Shown: positions 20,587 to 49,069 of the stretch, in pieces
Numbering within the stretch: the first letter of the stretch is position 1
Layout of the letters: each line of letters begins with the position of its first letter
Assembly (NCBI GenBank): GCA_050084515.1
Contig: CM114271.1
Coordinates: 45,818,001 to 45,882,000 of the forward strand
Reading direction: 5' to 3'
Source: Blasia pusilla
Lineage: Eukaryota
DNA length: 64,000 nt
Notes under the pieces: model-generated
Database searches by the model: none
What the model was told of the DNA's origin: nothing
The model's input: the letters and a program-made list of their open reading frames with translations, nothing else
Translations under genes and position numbers: made by a program

Positions 20587-21223
20587 GCCTCAAGAAAATG
20601 TGGACCTTCCGTGATCTGCCTTGCTAATCCAGATCTTGAGATACCAAAATCATGCCGTGACACCACTTCAAATTGCGTGTGCGCCAATTATAAAGGAAAA
20701 TAAGCGCTCCTGCATTCAATAAGCTCCCATGTTGAATCAAAGAAGGAAGGCATGCAAATGTAGAAACGAAGGAAAGGAAAGCGCTCAAGAGAATAGAGGC
20801 ATGATACGTATACTCTCAAAGAAGAAACCAAGAAAATAAATGAGCATACCAACTGCCAGGCCACTCCCGATCACACTCTCCTACTACGCCACCACTCCTT
20901 GAGCGACAGAACCCAAAGAAATCAGGAGGTAGACTCGAGCCTCTTCCAATCACGCTCTCCTGCTGCACCACCACTCCCTGAGCTACAGAACCCAAAGTTG
21001 TGCACTTTGCTCGGAAGGGGCTTCAAGTCGCGGCTCAATTTTTGGCTCAAAGCTTGTCTCCGAAGACCAAAACCCTAAACCCAACGAACCCAACTCAAAT
21101 TGAGAGGGAAACTTGAAAGTAAGGACTCCCTTCTTCCCTCTAAAGCTTTTCCATAAAATTGATTTTTTTAGCTAGGAAAGCTAATTTTTGTAAAAAATCA
21201 ATTTAATATATGTAGATGTGACA

Positions 21224-21591
21224 TGTCATGACCATACGGATTATGTCGTAGAGTATAGTGTGCTAGTAGAGGCCATTCCTTATGTAGGACCGTAGTGGCT
21301 TGGTAGAGATGCGGTTCCATACATAGGGTTGGGGGTTACTCAATTGGGGGTGACTTTCCCAATAGGGCCCGCTCTTAGGTTGGAGGATATAAGGTGGAGT
21401 ACACTCAAAGAACAGTCAGTTCTTTGAGTTGAGCCTGTTGCGTTGGGAGTTAGCCTTGGTAGTGAGTAGAGCTCTTGGCTATGGTGTTTCCCGCAAGCTC
21501 CGACCTAGATTCTTCCATCATGGAGTGGGTTTGGCTCGATTGTATGTGATTGTATACGTGTTTTATGACAGTAGGTCTTTCACCGATTTCA
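21224..21591 (+). repeat. Terminal repeat A1 of Gypsy copy 1
   Basis: Matches 30325-30677 with about 6 substitutions and one 15-bp indel by eye; contains TATAA at 21388. Confidence 0.95.
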
Positions 21592-24500
21592 CTCAAAGAA
21601 CTGGAGTAGATCGATGGTAGCTTCGATTGACAGATCAAGAGGGATTTGGTTAGGGTGATTGTGTACTCAGCCGTGGATGTTCGTGGCTTGTGGCCTATGT
21701 TGGAGGTATGAATCTGGTGCGTGGTTGGTTGGGAAAGAAGCGCCTTGGTAAGAGCTTTCCAACGCGCTTTAGATCGCCAGATTTTGTCAAGGGAGTTGGA
21801 AGTTATCAAGGATTGAAGATTCTGGTTCGTGTTCAACGGTTTTCTGATGTGGAGAGCTTGGAGTGCGGAAGCTCTGTTGAAGTTCATCCAGATTGGGTGA
21901 GAGGTTCCTGTTGCTACTCGTATTGTGATCTCATGTGAATCTATCTGCTCGAGTGTGTGGAGCGTTGTGGATTTCTGCGTGCATGAAACTTGGCGGAAGC
22001 GCTGTCGGATAAGTGATTCTGGAGGTGTATGGACAACAAGTTTGTCTGATTTTTAGCTCGGAGTACAGAGCTCGGTTGTAGCTGATTTTTTGTGGAGAGA
22101 TAGCTATGGTGGTCAATTGAATTCTGGTTGAAACAGATTTGATTTCAGTCATAGATTTGTGAAGTAATTTCTGATCAAAATTTCGCGGACTAGCTCAAGG
22201 TATGGCTATGGTGGACAGCGGATCGGAGGGGTTGGTTGGTTGGTGACTCGTTCATTGTTGGAGACGCCTATCCCGTTGGGGGCGCCCTGGTTGGGCCTCT
22301 CTCCATAGCAAAGCATGGCAAAGCGTGGCGAACGGGGCGATAGAGGCTTCGAGGCAACTCGTGGTAGCTCGGGGTGAGTGGGCGTGAGAGGCGGAGTAAG
22401 GAGCAAGGAGCAAGCAAGCAAGCTTGCTTGCTTGGGCGTGAGGCAATTTTTGCAGGATTTGGGATTTGAGTGTTGCATAACTGGTCACCCATCTTTGGGC
22501 TATTCTGCCTGGAGGACGCTTAACTGCTGAGTTCTTAACTATGCCAGTGTACACACTGTTGTAGCTCATTTGGTGCTGTTCGGAGATGTGTTAGGCACTT
22601 TATGCATCTCAGGTTTTTGGTTGATGTACCTCTAGCTCATAGTACGGTGTAGCCTCTCCATGCAAGTGATATTTTCAGGTGCTGCGAGTTCGACTAGCAC
22701 GTCATCGACCCGCGGCGGAGTAGCTATTGCGTTAGAATTGTGTGGTGGGTTTTGTGGATTCATGGGGCACCACGTTTGGTGGATTATGTTACCTTGATTT
22801 CCATTTGCGATTGGAGGGTTGTCGTTGGACTTCCTGTGTTTGGATCCCCTCCATCGGTGCTTCTTGCTTGCGCGCCCATTGTTAGGGTTGACGCTGATTT
22901 CCAGAGTAGTGTTACTCCTGTGTGCTACTGATAGTGAGGCTGGAGTGATGACCAGTAGACCGTGGGAGGCTTCTTGTGGTGATGAGAGGTTAGGTTGCCT
23001 ACACCCATAGCTAGTAGAGCTACAATAGTAGAGCGACATCGACGTCACTTGGTTATTTGGTGGTGGTAATTTGGTGGTGGTGCGGCATCGGCATTGGTCA
23101 TCACGGAGCTGTCGGGTGGTCTGGTTGGGGACCGTGGTGCGGACAGTGGTGGTTTCACACGGAGTGGATTTAGGTATCGGCTACCTTTTCCACTTCCGAC
23201 GGTTGATGAAGAGGAGGACGAGGGTGTTCCAAACACCGAGTCTTCTACGTTGTTATCGAGTGTTGCAACTCCATTGATTTGGGACATGGACGGTGGATAT
23301 GGGGCCATGAAGGGCCCACGAAGATACTCGGGTGCAGTGGGTACCATTGAGTTGGAGGACTTCATGCAAGAGTTTGATACGTGGTGTGATATGCAGATGT
23401 TGTGGAACGCCACGTTGTTTACACCCTTCTTGGCTTGGAAGGGGTTGTTTCAGCACTTGGAAGGACCACCCATGGATGATTACCATGAGTTTAGGAAGGA
23501 CCATGTTGCTGAGATTGAGGCATGGAGACAATATTGGTCTCCAGGCTATGTGTCTATCACCCATGGTGGTATTGGTAGTAGTGCTCCTACTATGCCAGCC
23601 AGCCCGACGTTGAGTGGTACGAGTACGAGCCGGAGTGGAGGTACTAGTGGGGGTACTAGTGGAGGTACTAGTGCCCCACCATCGTTCAACTCGGTTGCAG
23701 AGTTCTTCAAGAGGTTGAAGAAGAACTATCAGGGAGTGAAGACGGAGAAGTTGAGGAATCTTCAGGAATTTGAGCGAAAGAGTGGTGAGAGTCTTCGTGA
23801 GGCATACACTCGTATGCGACGCTTGATTTCAGTTACCCAGGGTGTGACGAGGATCAGCGATCCGATTTTGGTATGGGATCTTGGACAGAGATTTGCGCCT
23901 TAGGGTACGTGATGCTACTCTTATGAGTGATGATTCACCCACATTGACCCATGTGTTTGCTCTATCTGAGAAGATTGAGCTTAACATGGTGAAGGAGAGA
24001 GTGGTGACATCCGCATTCAATAGGGATACATCTACTACTTCTCATGTTCAACCGCCCACCTCACAGTCTCGTAGTAGTGGTGGTGGTAGTAGTAGGGGGA
24101 GTCGTGGGGGGTACACACGACCTCATCCAAGTCCTAGAGGTACACTTGCGCAGAGACCATTGCCTTCATTTGCTACCCCGCAGCAAGGACAGTCATGTTG
24201 GACATGTGGAGGTGATCATGTTAGGAAGTTTTGTCCCCAAGAGGATGGGAGACGGACTTTGGAGGATGGGCCTCAGTCGGCCCCAACTCAGTGTGATCAT
24301 TTGCGGGAGACCAGGTCATCCTCGAGAGCGTTGCTTTGATCTTCATCCGTAGTTGAGATCAGGCCGCGGCCGTGGTGGAGTAGCTCGAGAGGTCGAGGTG
24401 GTAGAGGTGGACGGTGGTTGAGAGCCTCGGTGGCTACCCCTACCACTACGACAGAGTCGGCCTATGGTCGCCAGATTGAGTGATTGGAGCAGAAGTTGGC

Positions 24501-25909
24501 TACTATGGTCGGTATCCAAAGATAGATCACGTTCGGGAGCAGGAGCTTCCACCTCTTATGGAGGGGATGATCTCTCTTATATGGCGAGTGCATCACAGGT
24601 TGAGGCATCAGCTGCAGTTACGAGAGGAGCCACTCGAGCGTCAGAGCCACGTGGTGCTACTGTGGAGTTGGACCCACAAAGGGGTGAGGCTGGGAGGCAG
24701 GCTAGGCTTCCCTAGTCATTCTTGTTGTCTGAGGTGCTTAGGAATCCATCCATGGTTCCTACGCAGCCTATTGAGCCGACAGTGGGGACTGAGGCATCTA
24801 CATCGCGTGTAGTAGACACGGATGCAAAGATCAAAGGCAAAGATGTGCGGATGGCAACTTGATGTTGGGATCCCCATTGTTTTTGGCCACGGAGTCGATG
24901 GCTTTAGGAGTTGACTTAGCTCCTATATTTCAGCTAGCAGCCACATTGTGTGAACGTGGGGGTGTTACTGCTACACGTGTTGAGGTGGATGAGGATGTTG
25001 CGGTGGAGCGACCCTCTATGTCAGGTGTAGCATTGAGTACCAGTGCTACTTGGCAGGCAGCAGCGGCGAAGATGGATGCATTACCAGCCCGGCCAGCCAT
25101 TGATCGTGAGAGGCTTACACCTGGTGTATGTATGTTGGACAACAGTGGGATCTTCCGATTGGTGAGTCCTACAGACAGGTGTATAGACCGGATAGAGTCT
25201 TGTTAGACTCGGTGCTCAACCTTGATGTTGGGAAAGGCGGCATGTATTGGTTTGGGTATTCGGAGGTCGAGCTTGAGCCTTGCCCATTCCAGATTCAAAC
25301 ATCACTTGGAGGAGCCAATGATAGGTCTCAATTCATGACACGGGAAAAGTTTGTTTGCGGTTGAGACCAGATCATGCGATCGATAGCTCCCGGTTGGGAG
25401 TATCTCATGCGGAGTCACATAAGCCGAGTCGTATGATGTACTAGTTGGAGGAGCGATTGTACCCGATGGGTTTTCAGATGGATTATCGGATGGAGACAAC
25501 GTCTTCTTAGACCTGGTTGGCAGTCCGGGATGGACGTATGAGCCAAGTTCTTGTGAGATTTATTTATGGGGCTCGACCAGGAGGGTCTTCCCAACAAAGT
25601 GTTAGCATCTGTGGCTGGTTTTAGTGGAGTAGTCACTTGGCCGGAGACTTTTTGAGGGTAATGTTTTTTCTATGGATTCTCCTGCGCATGAGGAGGTAGA
25701 GGAGGTCCCTATTTTTGCAGCAAAGGGAATCCTCATCGTTGGATGTGCCACTTTGGAGTTCAGGCGGTGCACTACGGCAGGAGGCTTGGTGTGAGGCTAT
25801 TATACCTCACGAGGAAGAGGAGGCCCCACGGCGGACTCCTACTTCTGGTCCAGTTGGGTTATCCCCTTTGGATACTACACCCATTGTATGGTAGTATCCG
25901 CCGGAGGGC

Positions 25910-26740
25910 ATTTGTGTGTTAGATCTCTTTGGTGGGATTAGCACTGGTTTGGCTGCAGTGTTGCATGCCGGTATTCTTGTGCGGAGATACGTGTATGTGG
26001 AGCGAGATGAGACGGCCCAGTGAGTCTCATCCCGACATATTGGTCACTTGATCTAGATGGCCATGTCAAGGTCATACACGTGCTGGTCGTGGTGAGGGAT
26101 TACATGACCCTAGGTCTCGATTGTTTTGGGAGATGTTACGGGTGTTACGACATCTTCAGGTTCATCAGGCACGTGCTCTAGCTTACATTCTGGAGAATGT
26201 TCCATTGTTGGGTGACACTCGGACCCGGATGATGGCGAGTGTTCATGAGGTGCGGTCTTGATTGGACCAGCGGTGTTGTTGGATGCGTGAAGTTGGCTCG
26301 CGTGCACATCGCCCACGCTTGTGGTGGACAAACTTGTTGCTTAGGAGATTCTCGTCGAGCATATGATGTAGTGCAAGGGATCCTCGCTTACAGTGGATAG
26401 TATCTTGGATACTGGGCGACTTTCTCAAGTGGTAAGGGTTATTGATCGGTCACCCATGGCAATGGTGAACCGTGTGGGCCAGCCTAGGATGGCACTACCC
26501 ACATTTGTGAATTTTCCCTCGTCACATGCCTACAGGAAGGTGGTCCGGGGCTTGTATGGGATTCTCATGTGCGGCAGTTGGTGGAGCCTAACGCTGATAA
26601 GAGAGAGCGTGCGATGGGATTTGCTCTTTGGTGTGACAAATGGTTGCTTCTATTTCGAGGCTTCACGACGTCATGTGTTGGATCAGGCCATGGACCTGAA
26701 TTGTTTGACTTGGATTTTGAGTCTTGGTATGGCCGAGCAA
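25910..26740 (+). pseudogene. DNMT3-like C5 cytosine methyltransferase domain in Gypsy copy 1
   Basis: ICVLDLFGGISTG (motif I), YVERD (II), WPCQG at 26061 (IV), ILENV at 26193 (VI), HRPRLWWTNL (VIII), RERAMGF (IX), RRHVLDQAMD (X). Has an internal deletion and frameshifts. Confidence 0.88.
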
Positions 26741-29700
26741 GCGTCGACTTCGGACTATGTCGTGGGTCTTCCACCCTTGTAATGAGCTCGATGGCTACCG
26801 GGGACGGTAGAGGCATTGGTCAGGGGAGAGAGTAGTATTTTGCATCCTTGGAGTAAATGGGATGTAATGGCTGGGCATGTGGAGTTGGTTGCTCATGCTG
26901 GTGGAGGAGTTATTTGCTCAGATGATGGTGTAGCTAAGGGTGTACCATCTTGTAAGGGGGTTGCGTAGCAGCCAATGGCATCGTCCTCTCCCTCTAGTGT
27001 GCCAGTGGAGGAGACTTGGGAGCCATTACTTGGGCCCAAGCTTATAGGAGGTGAGAAACGACGCTTGACACAGTTCCTACGGGCTTATAGGAGTTGTTTT
27101 GCCTTTAGCATGAAGGAGTTGGGTTCTCTGGTTGGACCCGGTATACGGATTGATTTGGCTAGTGATACCCCAATCTTCCGTTTTCCCTACCGATATAGTG
27201 ATATGGAGAGGGACTTGATTAAGAGTAGGACGTTGGACCTTTTGGAGGCTGGATTAGTGGAGTTGTCGCATGGAGAGTATGCATTAGCCATTGTCATGCC
27301 TGCTAAAAAGGATATGCATAGCAACTACACGGATAGGCGGATGTGTGGAGATTACCGTCCTATCAATCGGCAAACCAAGGCTGATAAGTATGCATGCCTA
27401 CACCGAGGAGATCTTTGATGTGGTGGGACAGAAAAGATTTTCAGTATTTTGGATCTTGAGGGCAGATACCATCAATTTCCGATTCGGGAGAGTGACAAGG
27501 CCAAGACAAGATTTTGGGGTGTCAACTCATGGCAAGGATTGTTTGTACAGTGGAAATTCTTACCCTTTGGGTTGAAGAATGCACTTGCCGAGTTTCAAAG
27601 AGTGATGGACAGGATCCTAGTGTGGTTGGATTTTGTTCGGTGTTACATTGATGATATCTTGGTGTTCAAAGAACACGGTGGAGGAGCATCGATACATTTG
27701 CAGATGGTGTTTGAGCGGTTGAAAGCTCATGGTCTACGTTTGCATCCAAGAAAGTGTAAGTTCTTCCATGAGGATGTTGAGTACTTGGGTCATGAGATCT
27801 ATCCATGTGGTTTGGGAGTTCAGCAAGCAAAGGTGAAGGTAGATGTGAGTAGAGTTTGAGCATTCATGGGATTGGCGAACTACTATCGGAGGTATGTGAA
27901 AGGATTTAGTGCTATGGCAAAGCCTTTGAACCAATTGTTGAAATCAGATCAAGAGTGGCACTGGGGAGATGATCAGGAGAGAGCTTTTGTGGAGCTTAAG
28001 GCCCAGTTGGTGGCCGCGCCTATCTTGAGGAGACCTATCAGAGGGCGCCCATTTTAGTTACACACTGATTGGAGTAGGTTGGGACTTGGAGCGGTGTTGA
28101 CACAACATGATGATGAGCACATGGAGTTTGTGGTGGCCTATGCAAGTCGTTCGAATAATGCAGCAGAGTCGCGCTATAGTTCATATGAGGGAGAGTGCTT
28201 GGCAGTAGTGTGGGCTGTGGCACACTTTAGGTGTTACTTGTTTGGCACCCAGTTTATCCTTGTTACTGATCACCAACCGCTCAAGTGGTTGATGGAGTCG
28301 GACAAGCTTACAGGGAAGCTTGCACAATGGGCTCTTATCTTACAGGAGTATGACTTCCAGGTGGTACATAGAGACTGGAGTTGCCAACCTTGATGCCGAT
28401 GGGTTGAGTAGGAACCCATGTACTAGCCAAGAGGATACAATCGGGGCTAGATGGCATGGCGAGGTTGATGAGGAGATGGTGCCAGTTGGCATGCATCCGC
28501 CTTTTATGTTGGTTAGGGATGGACTCTAGTATGGAGGACCACATGATATCTTACTCTAGTCGAGGGTAGATGGCCACCTTCAGATCTTAAGGTTGAGATG
28601 GTGGTATGGATCAGCGTGATATTCATGATGATGCGTTAGTGTTGGAGTTCCTACGGACCAAGAGGGTGCCAGGCATAGTGAGTGCCAAGGAGCGAGACCG
28701 TGTTCTTCAACGTGCTAAGAGGTATCGATTGAGGGAACCCATATTCTCGCGTGTGGGAGGATGGTAGAGTACGAGTAGTGCCACATTTGGCTCAGAGAGA
28801 GCGCGACAGCGACATGCCCATGAGGAGTTGGGAAATTTTGGGTAAAGCGACGTAAAGCTTACTCCTTGGCCAAGACATTGGTGGCGTGGCATGCATACTC
28901 AGATGCAGCAGCTTGGTGTCACGTTGTATGGTTTGTGACCGGTGAGGGCATCATTTAATGCCCCTACACCACAATTACACCCTTGCCTATTATGGGGTTG
29001 GTTTACCGTTGGAGTGTGGACTTTTGCGGGACGTTACCGTTGATCGACATCATCATCGATATGTGTTGGTGATGGTGGAGCACTTCTCCAAGTGGATTGA
29101 GTTGGTGGCATTACGGGACAAGGCAAGTGAGGGAACGGCGTATGCATTTCTGGATAGAGTGCTTAGTCATTTTGGTGCACCAACCGAAGTCTTGACCGAC
29201 CAGGTCTGAGTTTGTGGTGAGTTTGGTCTTGTGTGACAAGGCGTTGATTGATCATCGGACCACATCTCGAGATCATCCAGAGGCGGATGGTTTGGCTGAG
29301 CGTGTGGTTCGAGGACGGTGAAGAGGGCATTGCGCAAGTATGGCCTCTGAAGGGCATCTTGAGACAGGATGTTCGGTTGCCATGGTTAGCCATGGGGTAT
29401 AGGGTTTAGTCGCCAAGCATCCTTGGCTTCCTTCTCACCTTATTTTTCTGTTATATGGCGAGATCTAGACTTGCCAAAAAGAATTGTCGGGGAGTCTAGT
29501 GAGGTGGTGAACCTTGATGACCCAGAGATGTGGATGAGGGTGTGTTCTCGGCGGAGCTCTTTCGAGAGTTATGCCACAACGGCCTTTGAGAATCTTGCCA
29601 TTGCTCAACACAAGGATACGTTTGCGGTATGCAACCATTCGAGGTGGAGGTTATCGACCATCGATTCAGAGGTTCCATGTGGGGACTATGTCTATTTGCA

Positions 29701-30216
29701 GCAGATTGCACCGACAACGTTGGATGTGACGCGCAGCCGCACTATTTTACGAAGTGCGCGAGGTGTTACCTTCCGGAGTTCTCATGTTGGAGGGTCGTGA
29801 TGGAGTTGTTTGGAAGGACCATGTGCGTAATTGTGCGCCATGTCATCTTCCAAATGTGGATGGTAATGTTGACCCAAGCTTAGCCATGATATTTGCTAGC
29901 TTGAGGTGCATGTTGTGTGGATCACTGGCAACGCCCGTATGTTGGTGTGTGATCGGTGTTCTAGGGGTTGGCACATGATGTGTTTGACTCCACGTATGGA
30001 TGTTGTTCCTAGTGGAAGGTGGGTTTGTCCTCGATGTACTTAAGAGAGGTAGATGACTTGATCTTTGCATGATATGGATTACAGATGTGCGACTAACGAT
30101 GGGGCAACCTAGCACCCGGCCTTCTGATTCGGGCACCCAAGAAGGTGTATAGCATGTAGTAGATGTATAGGGCTACCTGGGAGTTAGAGGGACCTAACCG
30201 CAAATTAGGGGGGCGA

Positions 30217-30783
30217 GTTGTGGTACACTTGTGTTTGTGGATACTCTCGTCTATGTTATGTATGTATGTGAGTATGGTATGTCAGCAATGTATGTTGTAT
30301 GACGATGTGGATTTGCACGACAACTGTCATGACCATACGGATTATGTCGTAGAGTATAGTGTGCTAGTAGAGGCCATTCCTTATGTAGGACCGTAGTGGC
30401 TTGGTAGAGATGCGGTTCCATACATAGGGTTGGGGGTGACTTTCCCAATAGGGCCCGATCTTAGGTTGGAGGATATAAGGTGGAGTGCACTCAAAGAACA
30501 GTCAGTTCTTTGAGTTGAGCCTGTTGCGTTGGGAGTTAGCCTTGGTAGTGAGTAGAGCTCTTGGCTATGGTGTTTCCCGCAAGCTTTGACCTAGATTCTT
30601 CCATCGTGGAGTGGGTTTGGCTCGATTGTATGTGATTGTATACGTGTTTTATGACAGTAGGTCTTTCACGGATTTCAGTTGTGGTACACTTGTGTTTGTG
30701 GATACTCTCGTCTATGTTATGTATGTATGTGAGTATGGTATGTCAGCGATGTATGTTGTATGACGATGTGGATTCGCACGACA
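30217..30783 (+). repeat. 3' terminal block of Gypsy copy 1: B1 (30217-30322), AC spacer, A2 (30325-30677), B2 (30678-30783)
   Basis: B1 and B2 are 106-bp direct repeats with 2 differences seen; A2 repeats A1. Confidence 0.95.
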
Positions 30784-33679
30784 GACATGTATAAACCCTA
30801 TCTTATCTTAAAATCTTTGGTGGAAGGAAGACTAATAAAAAAGACCCTATTGTTCTTATAAGAGTTTGATGGAATAAATTATGCCCTATTGTTCTTCCAC
30901 AAAACTTAATAAGTCTTCCGAGGGACGCAATTAAAAAACCCCTAACTTTTTCGCACGTGATGGGGCATTTGTGTGGAAGTGAGACCCCCGAGGACCCTCA
31001 AAACCAAATGAACACCAAATATGTGCCAAACGGAACATCAAAAATCTAGTGGACTCACACTACGATAATCGCGTTTTGGAGAGGCTTTTGGAAAGGTCTC
31101 TTGGTAAAGTCCAAAAGACGAAACGCGGAATAGAGTTGTGCATTTCATGTGTTTGTGGTTGCAACCAGGAAACTTGGACCAAACGTGAACCAAGACTTGA
31201 GATGAGTTGAGTCTTGGAAGGTTGGTTGCCATAGAGGTGAGAATCAATTTTCGAACACGACTAGTGTTTGGGGATTTTGATTGCGTTTTGGACCATAAAA
31301 TTTAGTCCCAAGATGTATTCGGAACAAATAAATACGCGTTGGAAAGCTTATATTGAGACGCTTCCAACACACCAAAAACCTCATCAAACGCATAAGTACA
31401 AGCTGAGATATCGGCCAAAAACAATTGTGAGAGCAATCGGGTTGAGGGCCAATCTGGGGGGGCCCAACTGTCTTTCCCTAAAGTTAGGGGGAGGGCGGGG
31501 ATCCCCAGAAGTACTAGTACTGGGAGTCTCTCCAAGGATTCTTGGAACACGAACCCCACTTTGAGCACCAAACGGCGTCTGAAGGGCACGGGATGGAACG
31601 GGAGTTTGGCGTTAGAACTCGAAACCCAAACTTGATGCAAGGGAGTGGACTTCGTAAGCCACACTTGGATTCCAACCCGCGATTCATTTTTGTGACTTGC
31701 GAGTAGGGACTCATTGGATGTCCATTGGACAATTGGAACCGCCAAGCATTCAAACTCCATTTGAGGTTCCTCAACTGACATAAATTTTGTCCCAAGTCTT
31801 CAAAGACTTGCATGTGTTGTAAACCGCGAAATTAGGAAGGTTGAGCTTGATGAGAGGCCGAGTCAAGAACTCGGCAAGTTAGAACCGCTGATTGATCCAG
31901 ACCTGACTAATGTGAGTGCGTGTTTGGATGCAGATCAACGTTGAGAGCGTGTCCTACTAAATGCATGCTTCCGCAACAACGAAGATTAACGTTCAAGGAG
32001 AATAGACCCACAACATAAGGTGACTTGGCAAAAAAAATCATTTTTTTGTCCTAGTCTTTGATGGGTTTAACTAAAGACTTCCTTGGACTGTAGGAACTTT
32101 TCCACTTTTTCCAATGTGAATTTATTTGTTGAACTTCAAGTTTGTTATTATCTTCTACTTATTGGTGATGGTAGTTGATGTTACTTGATCTACACTTGAA
32201 TATCATCATATGTCAATAAATGATACTTGAAGAAACTAATTATTGGTGTTGATAATTGATATATCTCTTCATTTGAATATCACCTTGCAATCAACAAGCT
32301 TAATTATATTAAAGAGGTAAGACTCTTAACGCAAGACTCTAGATATGAAATTTGCCTCAAAACTCTTTTATTGAAATGAAAATATGCAATAAAGTTTTTG
32401 ATCCAACTTGCTTGTTCATACTAGACTATGGTAGTAAATGTGATTGTATTGTCATGTTTTCCACAAAGCCTTCACCAAAGGCTGAAAAATTAACCTTAAC
32501 GTACCATACATCAAAAGTGGACCCTCGCCGAAGTCCTTAAAAAGTACCTCCCTCCCAAGCTGTAAATGGAGCTCTTCTATATAGATATTTGGCTAACAAA
32601 ATTTTCAGGAGCATTAAAACAAGGATGCTAAAATTGGCTAGTAAAGCTTGCCCCAACAAACTTAAGTATTCACAACTAAAAAATTTACATCATAATTTTT
32701 TTCAAGAAGGGAAATGATCAATAAATTCCTACATGTAAATATTCATAAAATAATAATTGCTCTCACTAGTGATATCATGTTACAAAAATTATACCCTCAT
32801 TCTCGAGTGAAATTAGGTGCCTATTAGGTACTCATGCAATGCATGAGAGAGGTACACGTAACTAGCCCCCAATCTATCCCCACGGCTCTAATTGACCCCA
32901 GATTTACCCGACAAACTCCGAACCGACCCCTAACTTGATTGACGTCATAATTGACTCTAAATCACCAAGAACACATGTTAAACGTGAGTGGGTAAAAATA
33001 TGAGATGTCAACGGGAGAAGAGTTTTGGAAAATTAAAGGGAACTTTGCAATAATAATATAGATCATATGTCAAGAATATTGTAATTTCCTTCTTACGGAG
33101 CTTAGAGGAAAACCATTGTCCTCGGATCCCATGGACCTCAACCCTTCGGGCTCATGGTTAGAACAACCATACCGACATTGAGACACTGCATGTGGAATTC
33201 CACTTCACATTCAAATGGGTCTCTTCCCCTCATGCCATCATTTTCCCTGTCGGTTTCTCGATAAAGCGTAACTAGAAAGAGGAGGTATAAGGACTTGCAC
33301 CATGCCTCCTCAGGTCCCATTTGATGCGCGTAGAAAAAAAAATAGACCATAGGGTCAGACGTCAAAATCCCTAATTTCTATATGATCAAATTCGGTCCTC
33401 GAATGCGGAGTGCCCGGGAGGTGGCTGCACACACTCTAAACTCCAGAATCTAATAATATTAAACTTTCTTTTATGTAAATAGAAGTCATCCATATTCAAA
33501 CACTAGAGGACTATTCAAATTTTAAAAAGCCCTCTTCCTCCTTTCCCTTCTTCATTTAATTGTGTCCTCTTACTTGAACTCCTCTTCTTAAAGTGATATG
33601 TGTCAAAACCAAAAGAACTCTTAGAAGACATGTGTCGACGCATGAAGTTTCTTTTAACTCATCTTCTTTTAATTTTTTA

Positions 33680-39416: not shown

Positions 39417-40177
39417 TGTCGTGCACATACACATCGCTACATAACATACATCGTTGTCATCGAACACACACAAACACACACGATCCCATGCTGACTCATG
39501 GCATCCATACACAGAGGCGAGAAGCACCAAAATATCTCCAATCTGTAAAGTAAGATCCAATCTCTCTGTACACCATCTCACACCATAGCATTCAAAGATG
39601 TGCACTATCTCTCATGTCAAACCAAACTCATTCTCCTAATAAAAGGCTTGGGTTACACTCACAAGGCAAGGAACCATAGGTCCGCCGCCTCATGCCAAGA
39701 GGTTCAACAAAGAGAGAATGAGCTCCCAAGTTCTCTTTCCTTGAGGTATACCCCTCCCCTCTCCCAAGCTCTCTCCATGGTAACCTATTCTCCCAAGTCA
39801 CCTCTTTGGCTCTTGACCTGATGTAGGAGGTCAAGGGCCACTTACCAAAAATAAAAAGTCGATCATATATTGAGAATGGTACTTACCTAAAATAGTAAGT
39901 TTCTAAATATGGTCCAAATGAGCCGAAATGAAGGGGAAACCTGCTCTCTCAGGTTTCCTTGGGCCTCAACACGCCATCCTCGAATTCATAGGCCTGTCCT
40001 CCACTACTCGTGCAGACGCTTTGCTAAATCCCACCGATATATCCTAACAATCGTGGCAGCTGTCGTGCGCATACACATCCCTACACAACATACATCGCTG
40101 TCATCGAACACACACGATCCCATCCTAACTCATGGCATCCATACACAAAGGCGAGAAGTACCAAAATATCTCCAATC
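39417..40177 (-). repeat. 3' terminal block of Gypsy copy 2: B1 (40177-40061), GC spacer, A (40058-39544), B2 (39543-39417)
   Basis: 39417-39543 and 40061-40177 are direct repeats differing by a 10-bp indel and substitutions; the element ends GCACGACA. Confidence 0.92.
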
Positions 40178-43100
40178 GCCCCCTAGTTGGTGGTTAGGTC
40201 ACTCTAACTCCAGATAGCCATCTATCCCTACCTACCACGACATACATCTCTAGGACGCTAAGAGCAGAAAGGCCGGGTGCTCATGTGGCCCCATTGTTAG
40301 TCGCCTTCATGTCATCCATGTCACAGAAAAAGTCGGAATCGAAACCTACCTAGTTTCTCCTCTATGTACATGTGGGACACATCCATCGTCCCCGAGGAAC
40401 CCTAGTGAGAGGTGGCGTCAGACATGCCATATGCCAACCTCTCGAACATCCATCATAGACTAGCATCGTGGCCGCACCACGAGCATAACCACACAACATA
40501 CAACGCAAGCTTGCAGGAACTACTACTAAGCTTGGATCTATTGCACCATCAATGTTAGGAAGGTGACATGGCGCACAATTACGCACATAGTCCTTCCATA
40601 CCATACCATCGCGTCCCTCCAGCAAGAGAGCACCGGATGGCAAAACGTCACGCACTCTCAGGATAGTGCGCCTTGTAGTCACATCCAACGTCGTCGATGC
40701 CGTCTGCTGTAAGTAGACATAATCTCCTTGATGAAACCTCCGGATAGTTGGTCGATAATCACACCCCGAATAGTCGCATACCTCAACGTATCCCAATGCT
40801 GCGCAATCGCCAAGTTCTCGAACGCCATGGACATCACTCTCTGAAACAACTCAGCCCTTTGAGAACATGCTCGCATCCATACATCTGGGTCATCAAGGTC
40901 TAACACCTCACCAGCATCTCGACGAATGGCCGTAGGTAAATCTGGCTCTCGGCCATAAAGTAGCAAGTACGGTGAAAAAGATGCTAAGGATGTCTGTCTG
41001 CTGAATATGTATCCCATTTGCCAACCATGGCAACTGGAGGTCCCAATCTCCTAGGTGACCTCTCTGCAAGGTCTTCACCATCTGCACAACTCTCTCCACT
41101 AATCCATCCGCCTCGGGATGATCTCGCGAAGTCGTGCGGTGGTTGATCAACGGCTGATCACACAAGGCCTGGAACTCACCGCGAAACTCGGTACCCTGGT
41201 CTGTCAACACCTCAGCCGGTGCGCCATAATGTCTCAACACTCTATCAAGGAAGGCATAAGCCACTCCCTCACTTGCTTTGTCAGGCAATGTAACCAACTC
41301 GATCCACTTCGAGAAGTGCTCGACCATCACCAACACATAACGACTGTGATGTTCTGTCAAAGGAAAAGGTCCTGCAAAATCCAAACTCCATCTATATCCT
41401 AAGCCCATGATCGGTAATTGATGCAACTGTGGAGTCGGAGCATTGAACGATACTTGGACCCGATCACACACCATGCACTTGGCAACAAACTGGTGAACGT
41501 CAGTCTGCATGCCTCGCCACCAATACTTAATCTGGAGCAAGCTGTACGTCTGCTTCACCCCAAAGTGACCCAACTCCTGGTGGGCATGCTGCACTAGTTG
41601 TGCTCTCTGCAAAGGATGCAGCACTACGCATACTCTACCATCCTCCCAAACCCTCAAAACATGTGTCCCCTCCAAACGGAACTGTCTGGCCCGTTGTAGG
41701 ATCCAATCCCGCTCTCTAGCACCCACGGTGCTTGCAACGCTACCAATACAAAGGTACTCCAAGACTACTCCATCATCATGAATATCTCAGCCACCTGTGG
41801 TCTCCTCACTGGCCTCGGGATCCAAGGACTCTCCACTAGACCTCGCCATCGAAGTCTCCACACTTTGGCTCTCCATAGCCAACATGCCTAAATAGGCTGA
41901 CGCGTGCCATCCTGGCACCAACTCCTCATCACTCTCTCCATGCCATCGAGCTCTAGTCACATCTTGCTGACTCGGGCATGGGTTACGACTCAACCCATCT
42001 GCATCTTGGTTGAGCGTCCGAGGTCTATGTACCACCTGAAAATCATACTCCCGCAACAACAGAGCCCATCTCGCAAGCTTCCATGTAAGCTTGTCGGACT
42101 CCATCAACCACTTGAGTGGTTGATAATCAGTGATGATGGTAAAGGGGTTTCTGAATAAGTAACACATGAAATGCGCGACAACTTACACCGCAGCCAAGCA
42201 CTCACCCTCATACAAGTTGTACTTCGCCTCTGCAGCGTTGTTCGAGTGGCTAGCGTAAGCCACCACGAACTCTCTACCCTCATCATCATGCTGGGTGAGC
42301 ACCGCTCCAAGCCCTAACATGCTCCAATCTATGTGCAATTGGAAAGGACGCCCCCTGATCGGTCTCCTCAAGATGGGTGCAGACGTCAACCTGTCCTTGA
42401 GCAATTGAAATGCTCGCTCTTGCTCATCCCCTCAGTGCCACTCGTGATCCACTTTGGTCAGCAAGGTCAGCGGCTTCTCAATCGAACTAAATCCCTTGAT
42501 GTACCACCGATAGAAGTTCGCCAATCCCATGAATGCGCGAACACGGCTCACATCTGTAGGGCGTGGAATGCGTGAGATAGCCTCTACCTTCGTTTGATGA
42601 ATACCAAGGCCCCCTGGGTATATCGTATAACCCAAGTACTCAATCTGGTCGTAGAAGAACTTGCACTTGCCTGGATGTAGCTTCAGCCCATGTAATTGCA
42701 ATCGTCAAAACACCTCCTCTAGATGTCGCTCATGCTCCTCAACCGTGGCGCTAAAGACTACGATGTCATCAATATAACACCTAACAAAATCCAGACTAGC
42801 CAAGATCCTATCCATGACCCTCTGAAACTCAGCCGAGGCCTTCTTTAACCCAAATGGTAAGAACCGCCACTAGTACAAACAATCCTTCCCGTGAGGATCG
42901 ATGCCCCAAAATGTTGTCTTTTGCTTGTCCTCCAATCTGATTGGCAGCTGATGGTATCTGGCTCGCAAATCCAATGAATTGAAGATCTTTGCCTGACCAA
43001 TCGCATCAAAGATCTCCTCACGGGTGAGCATGGCATACCTATCGGACTTTGTCTACCGATTGATAGGTCGATAATCTCCACACATCCGCCTATCCGTCCA

Positions 43101-43724
43101 GTTGCCATGCACATCCTTCTTAGCGGCCATAATAGTGGCAGATGCATACTCCCCATACGACATCTCCACTAGTCCTGCTCCAACCAAGTCCTGGCTCCTA
43201 CTCTGAATCAAAGCCCTCTCCATATCACTGTACCTGTAGGGTCGTCCGAAGATCGGTGTATCACTCGACAACTCAATGCGGATCCCCGGTCCCTTTAGCG
43301 TACCCAAATCCTCCATGGTAAACGCAAAGCAGCTCCTATAACTCTTGAGGAACTGATGTATTTGGCGCCGCTCTCCTCCTGTCAACTTAGGGCCCATATT
43401 TGGCTCCCAAGTCTCCATCGTGACTACGGTAGGACTCTCCACCGCGGGTATCGGTGGTTGCTATGGTGCAACCCCGTCTCGAACAACAACAATCGGCCTC
43501 TCTCCGGCAGCCAATTGTAAACTCTGATCTCCTCCACGTGGAGTGCCCGTAACCACGCTCGATGCTGTGGCTATCATCTCTTGGCGTACCTGCAAAACAT
43601 CCCAAGAAGTCCAAGGGTGTCTCTCTCGATCTCCCCTAGTGTGTAGATCTCTTCAGGTCTCGTCCCCAACCACTACTTCCACCATCTCGGTAGGCATGGA
43701 GCCCACCAATGCAATCCCTATGAT

Positions 43725-44710
43725 CTATCGCGATCTCATACGACGCTGCTCAACCATTCCCAAGCTGAGGATCCATGTCAAGTAGTTCAGGTCCATTGCT
43801 TGACCCAAGACATGGCGTCGTGATGCCTCTGACAGTGACGATACTGCCGTCACTCCTGGGGGAAATCCCATCGCTCGCTCTCTCTCGTCGGCGTTGGGCT
43901 CCACCAACCGCTAAACCTGGTCATCCCAAACCAAGCCAAGATCGGCCTCCTTGTATGCATAGGAAGCGGGAAAACTCACAAACGTGGGCAAGGCTACCTG
44001 CGGCTTGCCTACCCTGTTGACCACAGTCAACGGTGGTTGATCATCGTGCCTCACTGCCTATGAGCAATGATCAGGATCCAAAATAGAATCCACTAACAAA
44101 TGGGAGGGGCGCTCCACTCTCGCATACGCCCTCCGTAACACCGCATCGGGCACCAAGTTGGTCCACCATAGACGCGGGCGATGGGTTGTAGAACCTACAC
44201 TCGCCGCGTCCAAGAACACTGCTGGGCCAATCCAGGCACGCACCTGATGAGCACTCGTCACCATCCGTGACCTGGAGTCTCCTAAGATCGTCACATTCTC
44301 CAGAATGTAGGTTGGAGAATGAGACTGGTACTCCTGCAACTACCGTAAGACCCTCAACATCTCCCAAAATAACATGGATCGAGTGTCAACCAACCCACTG
44401 CTTTGTCCAGCACTCGATTGGCCTTGACATGGCCAATCGGAAATGACCAAATAAATGGTGCCTAACCGGTCTAAGTCCTGTGTCCCCAGCAATGAAATAT
44501 CCCTCGGTAGGGAACTATGGTACCCTTGTACCGCGGACGCAGACAATAAGTCAGGAAAACATAGGCATAACTGCGCCACATGTCATAGTGAGACGCGTCT
44601 CGCAACATCATCTCTCTCCACATACACGTGCTGCTGCACTCGCACTCATGCCTACAAAACAGCAGCTAACCCGGTGCTAATCCCTCCAAAGAGATCTAAC
44701 ACTCCAATAT
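43725..44710 (-). pseudogene. DNMT3-like C5 cytosine methyltransferase domain in Gypsy copy 2
   Basis: IGVLDLFGGISTGLAAV, YVERD, DWPCQGQS (44424-44432), YILENV (44292-44300), HRPRLWWTNL, ERERAMGFPPG, RRHVLGQAMD; one frame interrupted by stops. Confidence 0.92.
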
Positions 44711-45310
44711 CCTCCTTCGGGATACACCACACAATGGGTGTGGTATCCAAGGGTATCATCGTAACACTCCCTGCTACCTCGGGTTCCTCAGACATGTCAC
44801 GCTCCGGTGCAAACGCCTCGCTCCACACGATCTGCACGTGCTCATCTGCCAATCGTCGAAGCTCCTCAGTCGAGCCCCACAACGGAACCTCTCCTCCACG
44901 GAATGATGCGGCTACCTTAACACTCCTCTCTATAGAAATGTCAGGAACTGGAGTATCCTCTGCATGGACATGTCCCTCAATCAAATCACTGGGCCAAGTG
45001 ATGGCACTGCTAAGGTCGCCATCTCTCCTGGCCGTTGCTCGATCACTGCACCTCTGAATCAAACGGGTAATGAGCTAAGACGCCCATCATCTGACTGCCA
45101 TCCTGGTCTGTAGGACGCTGACTCCTCCCAATAATCCAATGAAAATCCCATCGAATATAACACTGCTCTACTAACCAAGACGTCGTAGGAGTCTGCATCA
45201 GTCACTATCGCCTTGGCTCGCACCACGGACTCATCTGTAGGATGTCCCAAGCGAATCTTCACCACGACCTCCTGTCGGGTGATATATTGTGTGGTACTCG
45301 CTCCACCCAA

Positions 45311-47462: not shown

Positions 47463-49024
47463 ACTCACGGGCGCTTGAACCCTCGTCACTTTCCTCTTGG
47501 CCTCCCCACTAACCTTTCTCTTCACAAGCGGTGACTCCTTGGGTTCATCCCTTTGGGTATTTAAGCACTTGAGATCAAGTTCCTCCAACGAGTTGCTACG
47601 AGACTTGGGTTGAAGTTTTTGCCAATTGGTGTTTCGTCCCCCAAACCACCATCCTAATTGGGTAAGTCATTGAAGTCTCAAGGGAGGTCGGGCCTAATTA
47701 GCTCATTCATATTACCCCGCAAACCTTCCCCAAGCCGAGGGGGTTCGAGATCCATGACCTTCTTCTTACTCTTACGAGGCTTGTCCTCATCCTTGGCCAT
47801 GCTAATTATTGCCACTGAAATCTCCCACTAACCATGGCCTATTCAATGGTGTATTTTTATACCAAATCATAGAGTCTGACTACTAGTTCTCCAAGATTTC
47901 CCTCAAAGCACTCATAACCTTGAGATTTATAAGTGAAAGACTTAGTTTGAGTCCCAAAGACTCAACAAGTTTGCTCGTTTGGTAGGTAGTGAGAAACTGC
48001 CAAGTGCAAATCATATTGATTCTCCCCTATGCGTACGGTCTCCATTATAAGTCTCTTCCCCAAGCCTCGACCAATCTCCCTAAGTCGCTTGTCTATACCA
48101 AATTAAAGCGTGTTGGCTAATTCCTTAAGGTGTGTCCAAGTAACTCAAACTGAAGACACAACTAAACATGCATCAAGGTTAGTTCCTAGTTCAAGGACTT
48201 GAGCGGGTAGGGAGGGAGAGTGTCCTCCCCTATAGGTACTTCTAGGGTTCTTCAGGGGAACCCCATCTTCCATATTGCTCCCCTTGGACCCTTAATTTTG
48301 GCCCTGAACCCAAACGTAGTTTGCGACCCACAGACCTACGTTAACGTTCCACTAGTTATTCATCAAGATTGCTTGGCGAAGGCTTCTTACGGATTATAAA
48401 ACTCTCAACTTCTCAAATGCATCTTTGAGCTTGGATCCGCATTTATGTGTCTCATGGCTAGCGTCTATCTTAACTCCCGATTTGATGTCTATGGTTGTCT
48501 TGCTGCCCTTTGTGTTTTGTAACTAGTCTTGAGGCGTCTTTCCCATCTTGACTAGTTACGTGTTTCTTGCTTCTCGCCCTTGACTCAAAGGTCTCAAACG
48601 TTAGGTGCTTGTCTTTTTTCCTTGCCAATAGATATGCTCCATATATTCTTGCCTACGGCTAGTCAGAAGACACATGCATGTCTCGCCTAGCATTTGTCTC
48701 GCGGTTGATCCCACGGCCCTTCCCAATCTCGTAACTAGCTAGTCTAGGTTCCGACTTTAGTGGTTCATGCTAAGGTCTTTCCTCCCTAGACCCAAGATTA
48801 TAATTCACTTCCCATGTTTTGCGTAAATCCCTATTGTGAATATAGTTTGCTTTTCATTTCGAGAAGTGGCCCTTGATCCACTATTGTAGATAAAGAGCCA
48901 AACAGATGGATTGCAAACACATGTTACTAAGAAGACAACTTTAAGAGATGAAAAGGATATACCCTCAGAGATTTGTGGTCCTCCTTGTCCAAGCCTCTCA
49001 CTAGGAGAGTGGGTTTGGTTTGAC

Positions 49025-49026
<2 letters not shown>

Positions 49027-49064
<38 letters not shown>
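49027..49064. repeat. (GA)19 microsatellite
   Basis: Perfect dinucleotide run. Confidence 0.95.

Positions 49065-49069
<5 letters not shown>

Follow-up and report, generated by a model that had tools for sequence, protein, structure and literature searches.

Introduction

In textbook LTR retrotransposons, it is the natural ends of a linear cDNA that enter the target, whereas joined-LTR circles are regarded as waste or as a dead-end by-product. Ngaro, PAT and VIPER, members of the DIRS order, carry a gene for a tyrosine recombinase and are not known to duplicate their target site. Their split direct repeats are arranged A1–coding–B1-A2-B2, and the internal B1-A2 corresponds to two ends joined, as described in the relevant excerpts of PMC4157794.

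An arrangement of this kind has also been noted for an element with Gypsy domains. KnitGypsy-Dnmt3 of Klebsormidium nitens is credited with a DIRS-like repeat arrangement in the legend to Fig 4c of de Mendoza et al. (2018, PMC5890265); its ends, duplications, priming sites, junction and mechanism are not given in the available excerpts of that paper. In the excerpted literature, KnitGypsy appears only in PMC5890265 and in one preprint, which cites the DNMT capture. Judged by title and abstract opening, publications on split-direct-repeat retrotransposons concern tyrosine-recombinase elements, reviews or unrelated subjects, and no description of an A–internal–B–NN–A–B layout was found in the available portions of the literature on PHD/gypsy, REM1, bryophyte and circularly permuted retroelements. 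Within the sources so covered, the layout has been remarked in print once, as a figure legend for one alga, without a mechanism.

Relevant precedents also exist for the priming and integration steps. Self-priming is described for Tf1/sushi elements and predicted for plant Tcn1 (excerpts of PMC6317226), and the integrases of foamy virus and HIV-1 cleave palindromic LTR-LTR junctions (excerpts of PMC1180852, PMC1905944).

The element considered here, at positions 21224–30783 of the window (the whole 64-kb stretch of DNA that was analysed), is a decayed copy of a Ty3/gypsy-order retrotransposon lineage with split terminal repeats. The structure of integrated copies makes it reasonably probable that the integrated, replication-competent form of this lineage is A–internal–B–NN–A–B, and that joined cDNA is re-opened at an internal junction and then inserted.

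Structure of the element

Direct reading of the sequence gives an element of 9,560 bp in the order A1–internal–PPT–B1–AC–A2–B2, with GACA at either flank. A preliminary description had proposed this order, with A alone at the 5ʹ end and a target-site duplication after B2, and every repeat was recovered where it had been placed. The features, all on the plus strand, are as follows.

21220–21223, +: left copy of the target-site duplication, GACA (sequence; empty-site joint 21219 to 30784)
21224–21591, +: A1, the sole terminal repeat at the 5ʹ end, beginning TGTCATGA and finishing TTTCA (sequence, repeat comparison)
21387–21394, +: TATA-like box ATATAAGG within A1 (sequence; in relatives, equal spacing from the TATAAAAGG box to the self-primer word)
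21417–21429, +: putative self-primer, the predicted RNA 5ʹ end, CAGTTCTTTGAGT (13-nt complementarity to the site after A1; fold)
21591–21603, +: candidate self-primer binding site ACTCAAAGAACTG, adjoining the A1 end (complementarity, fold, covariation in relatives)
21592–30203, +: internal region (many short frames)
30204–30216, +: polypurine tract (PPT) ending AGGGGGGCGA, adjoining B1 (sequence; G-run before B1 kept in relatives)
30217–30322, +: B1, ending GCACGACA; start 30216/7 by repeat comparison (sequence, repeat comparison)
30315–30331, +: internal junction GCACGACA-AC-TGTCATG, right and left ends head to tail, near-palindromic (sequence; same motif and place in relatives)
30325–30677, +: A2, beginning TGTCATGA (sequence, repeat comparison)
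30677–30678, +: A2/B2 joint, U5 end to U3 start (sequence; variable among relatives)
30678–30783, +: B2, the 3ʹ terminus of the element (sequence, repeats, reads leaving at 30783)
30784–30787, +: right copy of the target-site duplication, GACA (sequence; empty-site joint)

A1 and A2 match over 117 nt (99%) and, beyond a 15-bp indel, over a further 248 nt (98%); B1 (30216/7–30322) matches B2 (30677/8–30783) over 107 nt at 98%. A global alignment places 6 differences between A1 and A2 over 353 aligned bases (98.3% identical) and 2 between B1 and B2 over 106 (98.1% identical). The A pair and the B pair are thus equally diverged, as expected from a single duplication event. The two borders have 7 bases (GACATGT) in common, so that a duplication of 4 bp presupposes an element with the ends TG...CA. 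At the junction of B1 with A2, the element ends stand head to tail around a 2-nt spacer; this had been remarked before, and both the sequence reading and the relatives bear it out.

Priming and the expected cDNA

In every related locus read, a polypurine G-run adjoins B1. At the 5ʹ end, a word in A is complementary to the site after A1 over 13, 17, 10, 8, 11, 15 and 7 nt in seven elements. The words form two differing pairs, CTCAAAGAAC/GTTCTTTGAG and TTCTAGAAAAACT/AGTTTTTCTAGAA. In relatives the word in A lies ~30 nt downstream of the TATA box, and the second word pair begins 31–32 nt downstream of the TATAAAAGG box. Moreover, the self-primer site covaries in loci L006, L015, L062 and L069, its sequence shifting among sub-lineages while complementarity to the word in A is kept, and in the minimum-energy fold of the window copy's RNA, nt 1–12 are paired with the primer site (z −2.75). 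Transcription should begin in A, ~30 nt past the TATA box, and the first ~11–15 nt of the predicted RNA would be complementary to the site directly after A1, a configuration that suggests Tf1-like self-priming.

The likeness to Tf1, sushi and Tcn1 lies in this predicted RNA 5ʹ end, complementary to a site directly past the 5ʹ repeat, a relation found in the seven elements and in the fold. In Tf1/sushi-type priming, RNase H cleavage frees the first ~11 nt of the RNA to act as primer. Those elements, however, have ordinary LTR pairs and a chromodomain, whereas the present lineage has split repeats and a PHD finger after the integrase, and no chromodomain entry was seen by eye among the Pfam domains of the 120 relatives listed.

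A Tf1-like self-priming site directly after A1 would make A's end the U5 end, and the PPT adjoining B1 would make B's start the U3 start. With the primer site beside the end of A and the PPT beside the start of B, reverse transcription should make B-NN-A as the LTR at both cDNA ends. The same assignment of B+A as the true LTR had been advanced in the preliminary description, and it agrees with the PPT before B1 and the covarying self-primer site after A1.

Copies in the window and in related loci

The window holds only one full copy with both ends, together with a second, diverged element and a degraded fragment.

39417–40190, −: 3ʹ end of the second element, with the PPT at about 40184–40176, B1ʹ 40175–40061, spacer GC, Aʹ 40058–39544 and B2ʹ 39541–39417 (repeat comparison)
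40362–44753, −: coding remnant of the second element, with a PHD finger at 40362–40850, the integrase zinc-binding domain Integrase_H2C2 and the core domain rve at 40908–41786, and RNase H and RT fragments (profile matches)
48817–49207, +: third, degraded fragment, an A-end then B, 68–87% identical to the second element and broken by a (GA)n run (sequence comparison)

The 5ʹ part of the second element and its A1ʹ were sought in the window and not found. Motif searches of the window returned 12 matches where 4.8 were expected and 5 where 2.8 were expected, close to the chance level, with no copy beyond the two elements and the fragment.

The comparison covers 80 related metagenome loci, which probably derive from few host genomes; the counts refer to independent insertions and not to independent lineages. 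Among them, 20 independent insertions have the B–NN–A–B right end, and in the 6 independent loci in which A1 is also visible, A2 lies exactly between B1 and B2. Most copies having B upstream of A1 would have spoken for a one-off rearrangement; B was found upstream of A1 in 0 of 8 independent left ends.

TGTCATG opens seven left ends, and the right ends close with CACGACA or with a form of it altered at one base, in keeping with the fixed TG/CA termini that had been forecast. The accompanying forecast of 4-bp duplications held as well: perfect duplications (GACA, AAGG, AATC, CTTT and TACA) flank 5 of the 7 testable elements, whereas L062 matches at 3 of 4 positions and L069 lacks a match.

Also common is a second integrated form, A–internal–B, with 13 independent insertions that stop directly at B1. 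This form was not foreseen in the preliminary description, and the proposed model has no need of it. Such copies may have arisen by B1×B2 deletion or may be primary products of a second kind; among 7 insertions covered by two contigs, none was found in both states.

A proposed route of integration

The model under consideration begins with a cDNA that would carry a B-NN-A LTR at each end, made by reverse transcription. The two cDNA ends would then be joined, U5 end to U3 start, most simply by host end-joining into a two-LTR circle or as a head-to-tail dimer. Integrase would next cut both strands after CA at CACGACA-NN-TGTCATG in the LTR nearer the primer binding site. This cut would re-open the molecule as A–internal–B–NN–A/B with ordinary processed ends, which would be inserted by way of A's TG start and B's CA end, with a 4-bp duplication made at the target. 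Transcription of the new copy from A1 to A2 would again yield an RNA with B-NN-A, so that the cycle could repeat, and the A2/B2 joint would be formed afresh each time. On the evidence of integrated copies, the model as first put forward is supported overall, and each of its listed predictions held in the relatives.

The proposed cleavage resembles the use of two-LTR circles by foamy virus and HIV-1 integrases, as given in the excerpts of the studies cited above, in that a cut at a palindromic CA…TG junction of joined ends would regenerate insertion-competent ends. There, however, the cut falls at the circle joint itself and constitutes a side path, whereas here a built-in copy of the junction in each LTR would be cut, the joint would be kept in the insert and the route would be obligatory.

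Besides the A–internal–B insertions and the duplications of L062 and L069, one further result counts against the model. Random opening of a two-LTR circle at either junction should yield A-B-NN-A-internal-B as often as the observed form, and this other permutation was seen in 0 of 8 left ends, a weak test in that only 2 of the 8 come from B-only copies. The form could be erased by A×A recombination. Its absence was a point that the preliminary description had not anticipated.

Conserved junction, variable joint and alternative routes

The internal junction and the A2/B2 joint differ in their constancy. CACGACA-NN-TGTCATG is a conserved near-palindrome; every one of the 29 junctions read has a 2-nt spacer, and in 28 the spacer is purine-pyrimidine. 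A2/B2 joints, by contrast, show differences of 0–3 nt among relatives, mostly matching the start of the primer site. Among the 13 independent insertions of the ATACATG sub-lineage, TTCA is followed by AT in 5, by A in 2 (in one of these with an ambiguous G), by no further base in 3, and by T, ATC or ATA in 1 each. The window's own sub-lineage has the joint TTTTC/AGTTGTGG in 6 of 8 cases, substitutions allowed. Two loci have lost part of A's end and gained CGA from the PPT side, the loss amounting to 2 nt in L001 and about 22 nt in L010. The sequences flanking the joint, 14 nt of B and TTCA of A, are free of indels. Somewhat variable joints had been predicted, and these length differences and end losses, set against the fixed spacer, confirm the prediction. 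The variation between close relatives resembles non-templated joining of cDNA ends, although some of it could be ordinary indels at an A/T-rich spot.

The same joints may be read in another way, if reverse transcriptase itself jumped from the U5 end to the U3 start at the end of plus-strand synthesis. The resulting linear cDNA, LTR–internal–LTR–B-NN…, would offer integrase the left-LTR junction together with the first or the second right junction. Such a jump predicts exactly the two forms observed, A-internal-B-NN-A-B (20) and A-internal-B (13), without the unseen A-B-NN-A-internal-B. Reverse transcriptases add non-templated bases during end-to-end jumps, and the 1–3 extra bases at the joints fit such addition. 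At the L010 joint, however, the loss of about 22 nt from A's end rather suggests that the ends were resected before they were joined; the pathway is undocumented for this lineage at every step, and making the second strand of the extension requires further unproven steps. We consider this route unlikely.

A second alternative, to which we assign a similarly low probability, is that the A2/B2 joint is inherited. The RNA would extend through B2, a homology switch of the minus strand from B1 to B2 of a co-packaged RNA would produce tandem LTRs bearing the parental joint, and integrase would pick two internal junctions. If polyadenylation took place beyond B2, B1 and B2 would form direct repeats of 100–180 nt in one transcript. 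TGTA/TGTG words, which we take to resemble plant upstream polyadenylation elements, are plentiful in B and at A's end, and the predominance of one joint in the window's sub-lineage also fits inheritance. On the other hand, joints of close relatives differ in length, in primer-site or PPT-side bases and in end loss, while the flanks beside them are without indels; inheritance predicts the opposite.

Insertion as a single unit

The most prosaic explanation of the B-NN-A-B end, a post-insertion rearrangement or an assembly error in an ordinary LTR element, draws on the fact that the window's single full copy is decayed, but is very improbable: the layout recurs in the second window element and in the 20 independent insertions found in other assemblies, target duplications lie beside the start of A and the end of B, empty sites fit the whole unit, and divergence is equal for the A pair and the B pair. 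In 22 reads of set X21 and 23 reads of set X22, copies of the flanking repeat with an empty site run from 21219 straight to 30784, skipping 9,564 bases, and contigs in sets X1 and X3 make the same direct join. These empty sites indicate that A1...B2 went in as a single unit. Additionally, 607 reads (X21) and 650 reads (X22) run past 30783 into unrelated sequence, with a consensus agreement of 0.33. Mis-assembly and a one-off rearrangement had been named beforehand as outcomes that would overturn the model. Neither is borne out: mis-assembly is unlikely given the empty-site reads and contigs and the recurrence of the layout on independently assembled insertions from other sources, and the second window element shares the 3ʹ end.

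Three other assignments were rejected. One takes A alone as the LTR and B as duplicated target, but the PPT adjoins B1, B is kept from family to family and B2 is absent from the empty site. Another has reverse transcription build A+B as the LTR, but the primer site lies after A rather than after B, and the PPT before B rather than before A. The A/B joint is not a product of splicing, as its borders lack GT…AG.

Coding content and relation to known elements

The internal region (21592–30203) consists of many short broken frames, with deletions relative to the family majority at about 26052–26056 and 28786–28841. Profile matches within it are as follows.

23070–23903, +: gag-like frame (Retrotrans_gag, E 0.0014, a weak match under the Pfam cut-off)
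27419–27859, +: reverse transcriptase fragment (RVT_1, 2.3e-24)
28058–28393, +: RNase H fragment (RT_RNaseH, 2.1e-35)
28946–29209, +: DDE integrase core fragment (rve, 2.4e-08)

The order RT, RNase H, DDE integrase is that of the Ty3/gypsy order. As counted by eye, about 94 of the 120 listed relatives have a PHD and 8 have the cytosine methyltransferase domain PF00145, and in relatives RT, RNase H, integrase and PHD lie within one polyprotein. The lineage encodes RT and RNase H together with a DDE integrase that usually has a PHD finger at its C-terminus.

The window element resembles canonical plant Ty3/gypsy elements in having Gag, RT, RNase H and integrase in order, a primer site after the 5ʹ repeat, a PPT before the 3ʹ repeat and, like its relatives, TG…CA termini with a short target-site duplication, of 4 bp. 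It differs in that no identical LTR pair forms its two termini, since A stands alone on the left and B-NN-A-B on the right.

This coding content also bears on membership of the DIRS order. Split direct repeats in the order A1…B1-A2-B2, found here as well, are the hallmark of PAT, Ngaro and VIPER in the excerpts of PMC4157794, and the integrase fragments could in principle be foreign to an element that used a tyrosine recombinase. No tyrosine recombinase match was found, however, in the 19 window frames scanned or among the Pfam entries given for the 120 relatives listed, and the single polyprotein of the relatives, the DDE integrase, the TG/CA ends and the 4-bp duplications separate this lineage from that order. 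To our knowledge, tyrosine recombinases leave no such target duplication. An origin in the DIRS order is hardly credible.

KnitGypsy-Dnmt3 is closer. As far as its figure legend goes, it shares with the window element both Gypsy domains and the A–coding–B-A-B layout, and Klebsormidium proteins combining RT-RNaseH-integrase with a cytosine methyltransferase are among the relatives of the window integrase, at 46% identity. The difference lies in the host and in the methyltransferase domain, which was not found in the window frames scanned (19 frames, a subset of all).

Implications

Were the proposed route correct, the natural cDNA ends (B start, A end) would never be termini of an inserted copy; the former cDNA ends would be joined inside the element, and the inserted ends would derive from a conserved palindrome within the LTR. 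A wider generalization stands at about even odds: that joined-end cDNA is the obligatory insertion substrate, each LTR carrying a palindromic copy of the joined ends at which the DDE integrase resolves it, that split direct repeats are a general footprint of joined or circular cDNA insertion by any enzyme, and that this lineage forms a bridge between integrase elements and DIRS/Ngaro elements.

The finding may also affect element inventories. In the excerpts of PMC6317226, the LTR-finder survey requires an LTR pair adjoining the duplication. LTR finders that expect two identical terminal repeats beside the duplication probably mis-bound or drop elements of this kind, which may therefore be under-counted in bryophyte and algal genomes. 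If the model is true, the family is abundant in the host genome, with relatives in bryophytes and green algae, and would allow one to ask whether integrase uses a joined-end molecule, what joins the ends and how split direct repeats arise.

Structure of the element in the window

The retroelement at 21224-30783 was delimited by sequence reading and repeat comparison, which confirmed the layout given in the preliminary description: A alone at the 5ʹ end and, at the 3ʹ end, a polypurine tract (PPT), B1, AC, A2, B2 and a target-site duplication. The window also contains the 3ʹ end of a second, diverged element and a third fragment.

Features of the elements in the window
21224-30783, + strand, retroelement, 9,560 bp
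21224-21591, + strand, A1, 368-bp repeat at the 5ʹ end
directly before B1 (30217), + strand, G-run PPT
30217-30322, + strand, B1
between B1 and A2, + strand, spacer AC
30325-30677, + strand, A2
30678-30783, + strand, B2
40175-40061, minus strand, B1ʹ of the second element, preceded by a PPT and followed by GC
40058-39544, minus strand, Aʹ of the second element
39541-39417, minus strand, B2ʹ of the second element
48817-49207, third fragment, degraded, A-end plus B

The A1/A2 alignment has 6 mismatches in 353 bases and one 15-bp indel, and the B1/B2 alignment 2 mismatches in 106, a near-equal divergence by which the two pairs look equal in age. Because GCACGACA ends both B1 and the whole element, and TGTCATGA begins both A2 and the whole element, the B1-AC-A2 junction reproduces the two element ends head to tail around 2 nt, as originally proposed. 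The coding region is split into many short frames, in which reverse transcriptase, RNase H and a DDE integrase core are still detectable, in that order. Two repeat tracts in the window are unrelated to the element: a 79-bp spaced pair in its 5ʹ flank (20860-20997) and tandem or near-tandem repeats with units of about 210-260 bp (49736-50390).

The second element is about 71% identical to the first across 3.3 kb of coding sequence. Its integrase frame is intact, covers the zinc-binding and core domains, and precedes a PHD finger. Its 5ʹ part was not found within the window. Its 3ʹ layout is the same as that of the window element, so the arrangement is not a one-off.

Read evidence for a single insertion unit

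Two raw whole-genome read sets (X21 and X22) and two contig sets with the same species label were aligned on window positions 21000-31000. In 22 and 23 reads of the two sets, and in contigs of both contig sets, 21219 is joined straight to 30784, so that 9,564 bases are missing. The flank belongs to a repeat, and its other copies are empty sites, with neither the element nor a second copy of the 4-bp duplication. GACATGT (7 bases) is common to both borders, and the duplication is 4 bp only if the ends are taken as TG and CA. Among the best-supported joints listed, 607 and 650 reads leave the last base of B2 into mutually disagreeing sequence (agreement 0.33), and very many copies thus terminate, on the 3ʹ side, at the B end. 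Read depth is about 800-1,100 over the element versus 20-30 on the flank, and the A1 bin (~815) and A2 bin (~930) sum to roughly twice the internal depth, which fits two A copies per element.

Reads also depart from the window copy at 26052-26056 and 28786-28841, hundreds per run, into agreeing sequence (0.84-0.96), so at these points this copy has lost or replaced sequence that most of its family carries. In X21, differences from the window copy over 21000-31000 comprise C>T at 373 places and G>A at 409, with 26-170 for other types; this excess is the pattern expected of methylated-cytosine deamination in repeats. A further 24 and 34 reads connect the B end plus G, mostly with an intervening C, to the A start (30784 to 21224), matching the B-GC-A junctions of other copies. 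Six reads (X21) and four (X22) connect the B end (30783) back to 29811.

Distribution of the split layout among relatives

A search with the integrase frame against longer proteins returned 126 relatives at E <= 1e-10. These are RT-RNaseH-integrase polyproteins, with liverworts, Sphagnum, Klebsormidium, Closterium and chlorophyte algae among the source names. A PHD finger is present in about 94 (counted by eye) of the best 120 of the 126, and an entry for a tyrosine recombinase or a chromodomain in none. A cytosine-5 DNA methyltransferase domain occurs in 8 of the 120 listed (P0010, P0019, P0028, P0030, P0043, P0054, P0086 and P0098), most of which also have a PHD finger. An alignment of 19 relatives was used to retrieve 80 loci (L numbers) from metagenome contigs, with integrase identities of 41-73%. 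The window element is 76-78% identical to L006, L015 and L009 over about 8 kb, and L006 is collinear with it as far as the last base of B2.

Architecture was scored by self-comparison in the 42 loci that extend 2.5 kb or more past the integrase match. A short direct-repeat pair lies downstream in 27, including four doubtful tandem-repeat cases; it is typically about 100-200 nt long with a spacing of 380-497 nt, and begins about 630-850 nt after the integrase match (about 1,500-1,600 nt in some loci). In seven loci, representing six independent insertions because L022 and L023 are one, a second repeat lies exactly inside this pair, with its partner 4-11 kb upstream. When the A and B repeats from seven reference elements were mapped on all loci and contigs with a common right flank were merged, 20 independent insertions ended in B-NN-A-B, NN being the 2-nt spacer, and 13 ended directly at B1 (the A-internal-B form); the latter class omits L026, which is broken off 57 nt into A2. 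Truncated or unclear right ends include L024, L027, L031, L051, L053 and L070. The flank starts with the usual spacer, AC or GC, in 5 of the 13 B1-ending copies (L002, L011, L048, L072 and L079), and the flank after B2 does so in only 1 of the 20 B-NN-A-B insertions; some B-only ends may be breaks just past the spacer, not ordinary insertion ends. L066 stops exactly at the last base of A2, ~1,146 nt beyond the integrase match, and unrelated DNA follows, in which an inverted B fragment lies some 320 nt away; two readings of this end are an insertion at the joint and an occasional use of the natural U5 end.

A one-off rearrangement had been the expected reading if most copies carried B upstream of A1. 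B-like sequence was found there at none of eight independent left ends, seven of which start cleanly with TGTCATG (L028 is truncated). With TG/CA termini as predicted, the 4-bp duplications were perfect in five of seven elements (window element, GACA; L006, AAGG; L015, AATC; L073, CTTT; and L009, of the A-internal-B form, TACA), each match having a chance of 1 in 256; L062 matches at 3 of 4 positions (ATTA/ACTA) and L069 not at all (CTCT/AAAA). L022, with a truncated B2, was left out. The B pair is more similar than the A pair in five of six complete relatives (L006, L015, L022, L062, L069 and L073), as in L015 (95.7% versus 88.1%), although each pair should be identical at the outset; the neighbouring B copies may have undergone gene conversion, or A may decay faster.

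Priming and the predicted LTR

A G-run adjoins B1 in all loci read, and the word directly after A1 is complementary to a word inside A, over 13 nt in the window element and 17, 10, 8, 11, 15 and 7 nt in L006, L015, L022, L062, L069 and L073. One sub-lineage pairs CTCAAAGAAC with GTTCTTTGAG and a second TTCTAGAAAAACT with AGTTTTTCTAGAA; the words differ, and complementarity is kept in both. The A word starts 31-32 nt after a TATAAAAGG box in the second sub-lineage and about 30 nt after ATATAAGG in the window element. In an unbiased fold of 21418-21612, nt 1-12 pair with the site after A1 (-63 kcal/mol, z -2.75). This matches the self-priming arrangement known in Tf1/sushi and predicted for plant Tcn1 elements (PMC6317226). 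Since the self-primer site follows A1 and the PPT adjoins B1, the A end would be the U5 end and the B start the U3 start, and the reverse-transcribed LTR should be B-NN-A, in support of the earlier proposal of a B+A LTR. No inserted copy has these predicted natural cDNA ends as its own termini.

A fixed junction and a variable joint

The internal junction, CACGACA plus two bases plus TGTCATG or point variants, lies at a fixed place in relatives. Its spacer is exactly 2 nt in 29 of 29 junctions read and purine then pyrimidine in 28 (listed as AC 11, GC 11, AT 4 and GT 3), L070 having TC; a GC or AT spacer makes the core perfectly palindromic.

Unlike this junction, the A2/B2 joint varies in length and bases between close relatives, as the preliminary description had anticipated. 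In 13 independent insertions of the ATACATG sub-lineage, TTCA is followed by nothing (3), T (1), A (2, one with an ambiguous G), AT (5), ATC (1) or ATA (1). As the site after A1 begins ATT…, most of these extras are the first bases of the primer site. In the window sub-lineage, six of eight joints read TTTTC joined to AGTTGTGG, substitutions allowed. The L001 and L010 joints lack 2 nt and about 22 nt of the A end, respectively, and carry CGA, the bases preceding B1 on the PPT side. Trimmed ends and extra bases from the primer site are both features of LTR-LTR joints made by joining unintegrated cDNA ends. Cutting of the self-primer at variable positions would likewise account for the 0-3 bases taken from the primer site.

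Proposed mechanism and alternatives

All steps of the mechanism are deduced from integrated copies. RNA running from the A1 start site to A2 would comprise R-U5, the primer site, the coding region, the PPT, B1-NN and the U3-R of A2. Self-primed reverse transcription would yield cDNA with B-NN-A at both ends, which would be joined, U5 to U3. Integrase would then cut after CA on both strands at the palindrome in the LTR adjoining the primer site, leaving recessed CA-3ʹ ends with 2-nt overhangs, as in any processed retroelement cDNA, and insertion with a 4-bp stagger would give A-internal-B-NN-A-B. The internal junction would pass through RNA, and the A2/B2 joint would be made anew each cycle. 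Integrase cleavage of palindromic LTR-LTR junctions has been reported (PMC1180852, PMC1905944).

On the integrated copies, this model came through the tests proposed for it, and joined ends with internal cleavage are moderately probable. A closed circle specifically deserves less weight, because its random opening predicts a further permutation, A-B-NN-A-internal-B, which was not seen among the loci mapped, and because a reverse-transcriptase jump from the U5 end to the U3 start would yield the two forms seen (A-internal-B-NN-A-B and A-internal-B) and no other. The sample is small, and recombination between A copies could erase the missing form, so its absence weighs less. The A-internal-B copies may be deletions between B1 and B2, or may arise directly when a linear cDNA is cut at both of its LTR junctions; among seven insertions found on two contigs, none was present in both states.

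Relation to known elements

Split direct repeats define the PAT, Ngaro and VIPER elements, which use a tyrosine recombinase (PMC4157794); this lineage has the same repeats but differs from them in enzyme and target duplication. A large plant survey picked elements by LTR pair, duplication and TG/CA, and the passages of its text consulted make no mention of the split layout (PMC6317226). The mechanistic reading, joined ends re-opened at the internal junction, was likewise not found in the literature searched. The only gypsy mention of such repeats in that literature is Klebsormidium KnitGypsy-Dnmt3, with repeats arranged as in DIRS and domains of Gypsy (de Mendoza et al. 2018, Fig. 4c legend, PMC5890265); the passages of that paper on this element give no ends, priming sites or mechanism, and the one later paper found on KnitGypsy names just methyltransferase capture. 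The window element is a new, decayed member of this barely described kind.
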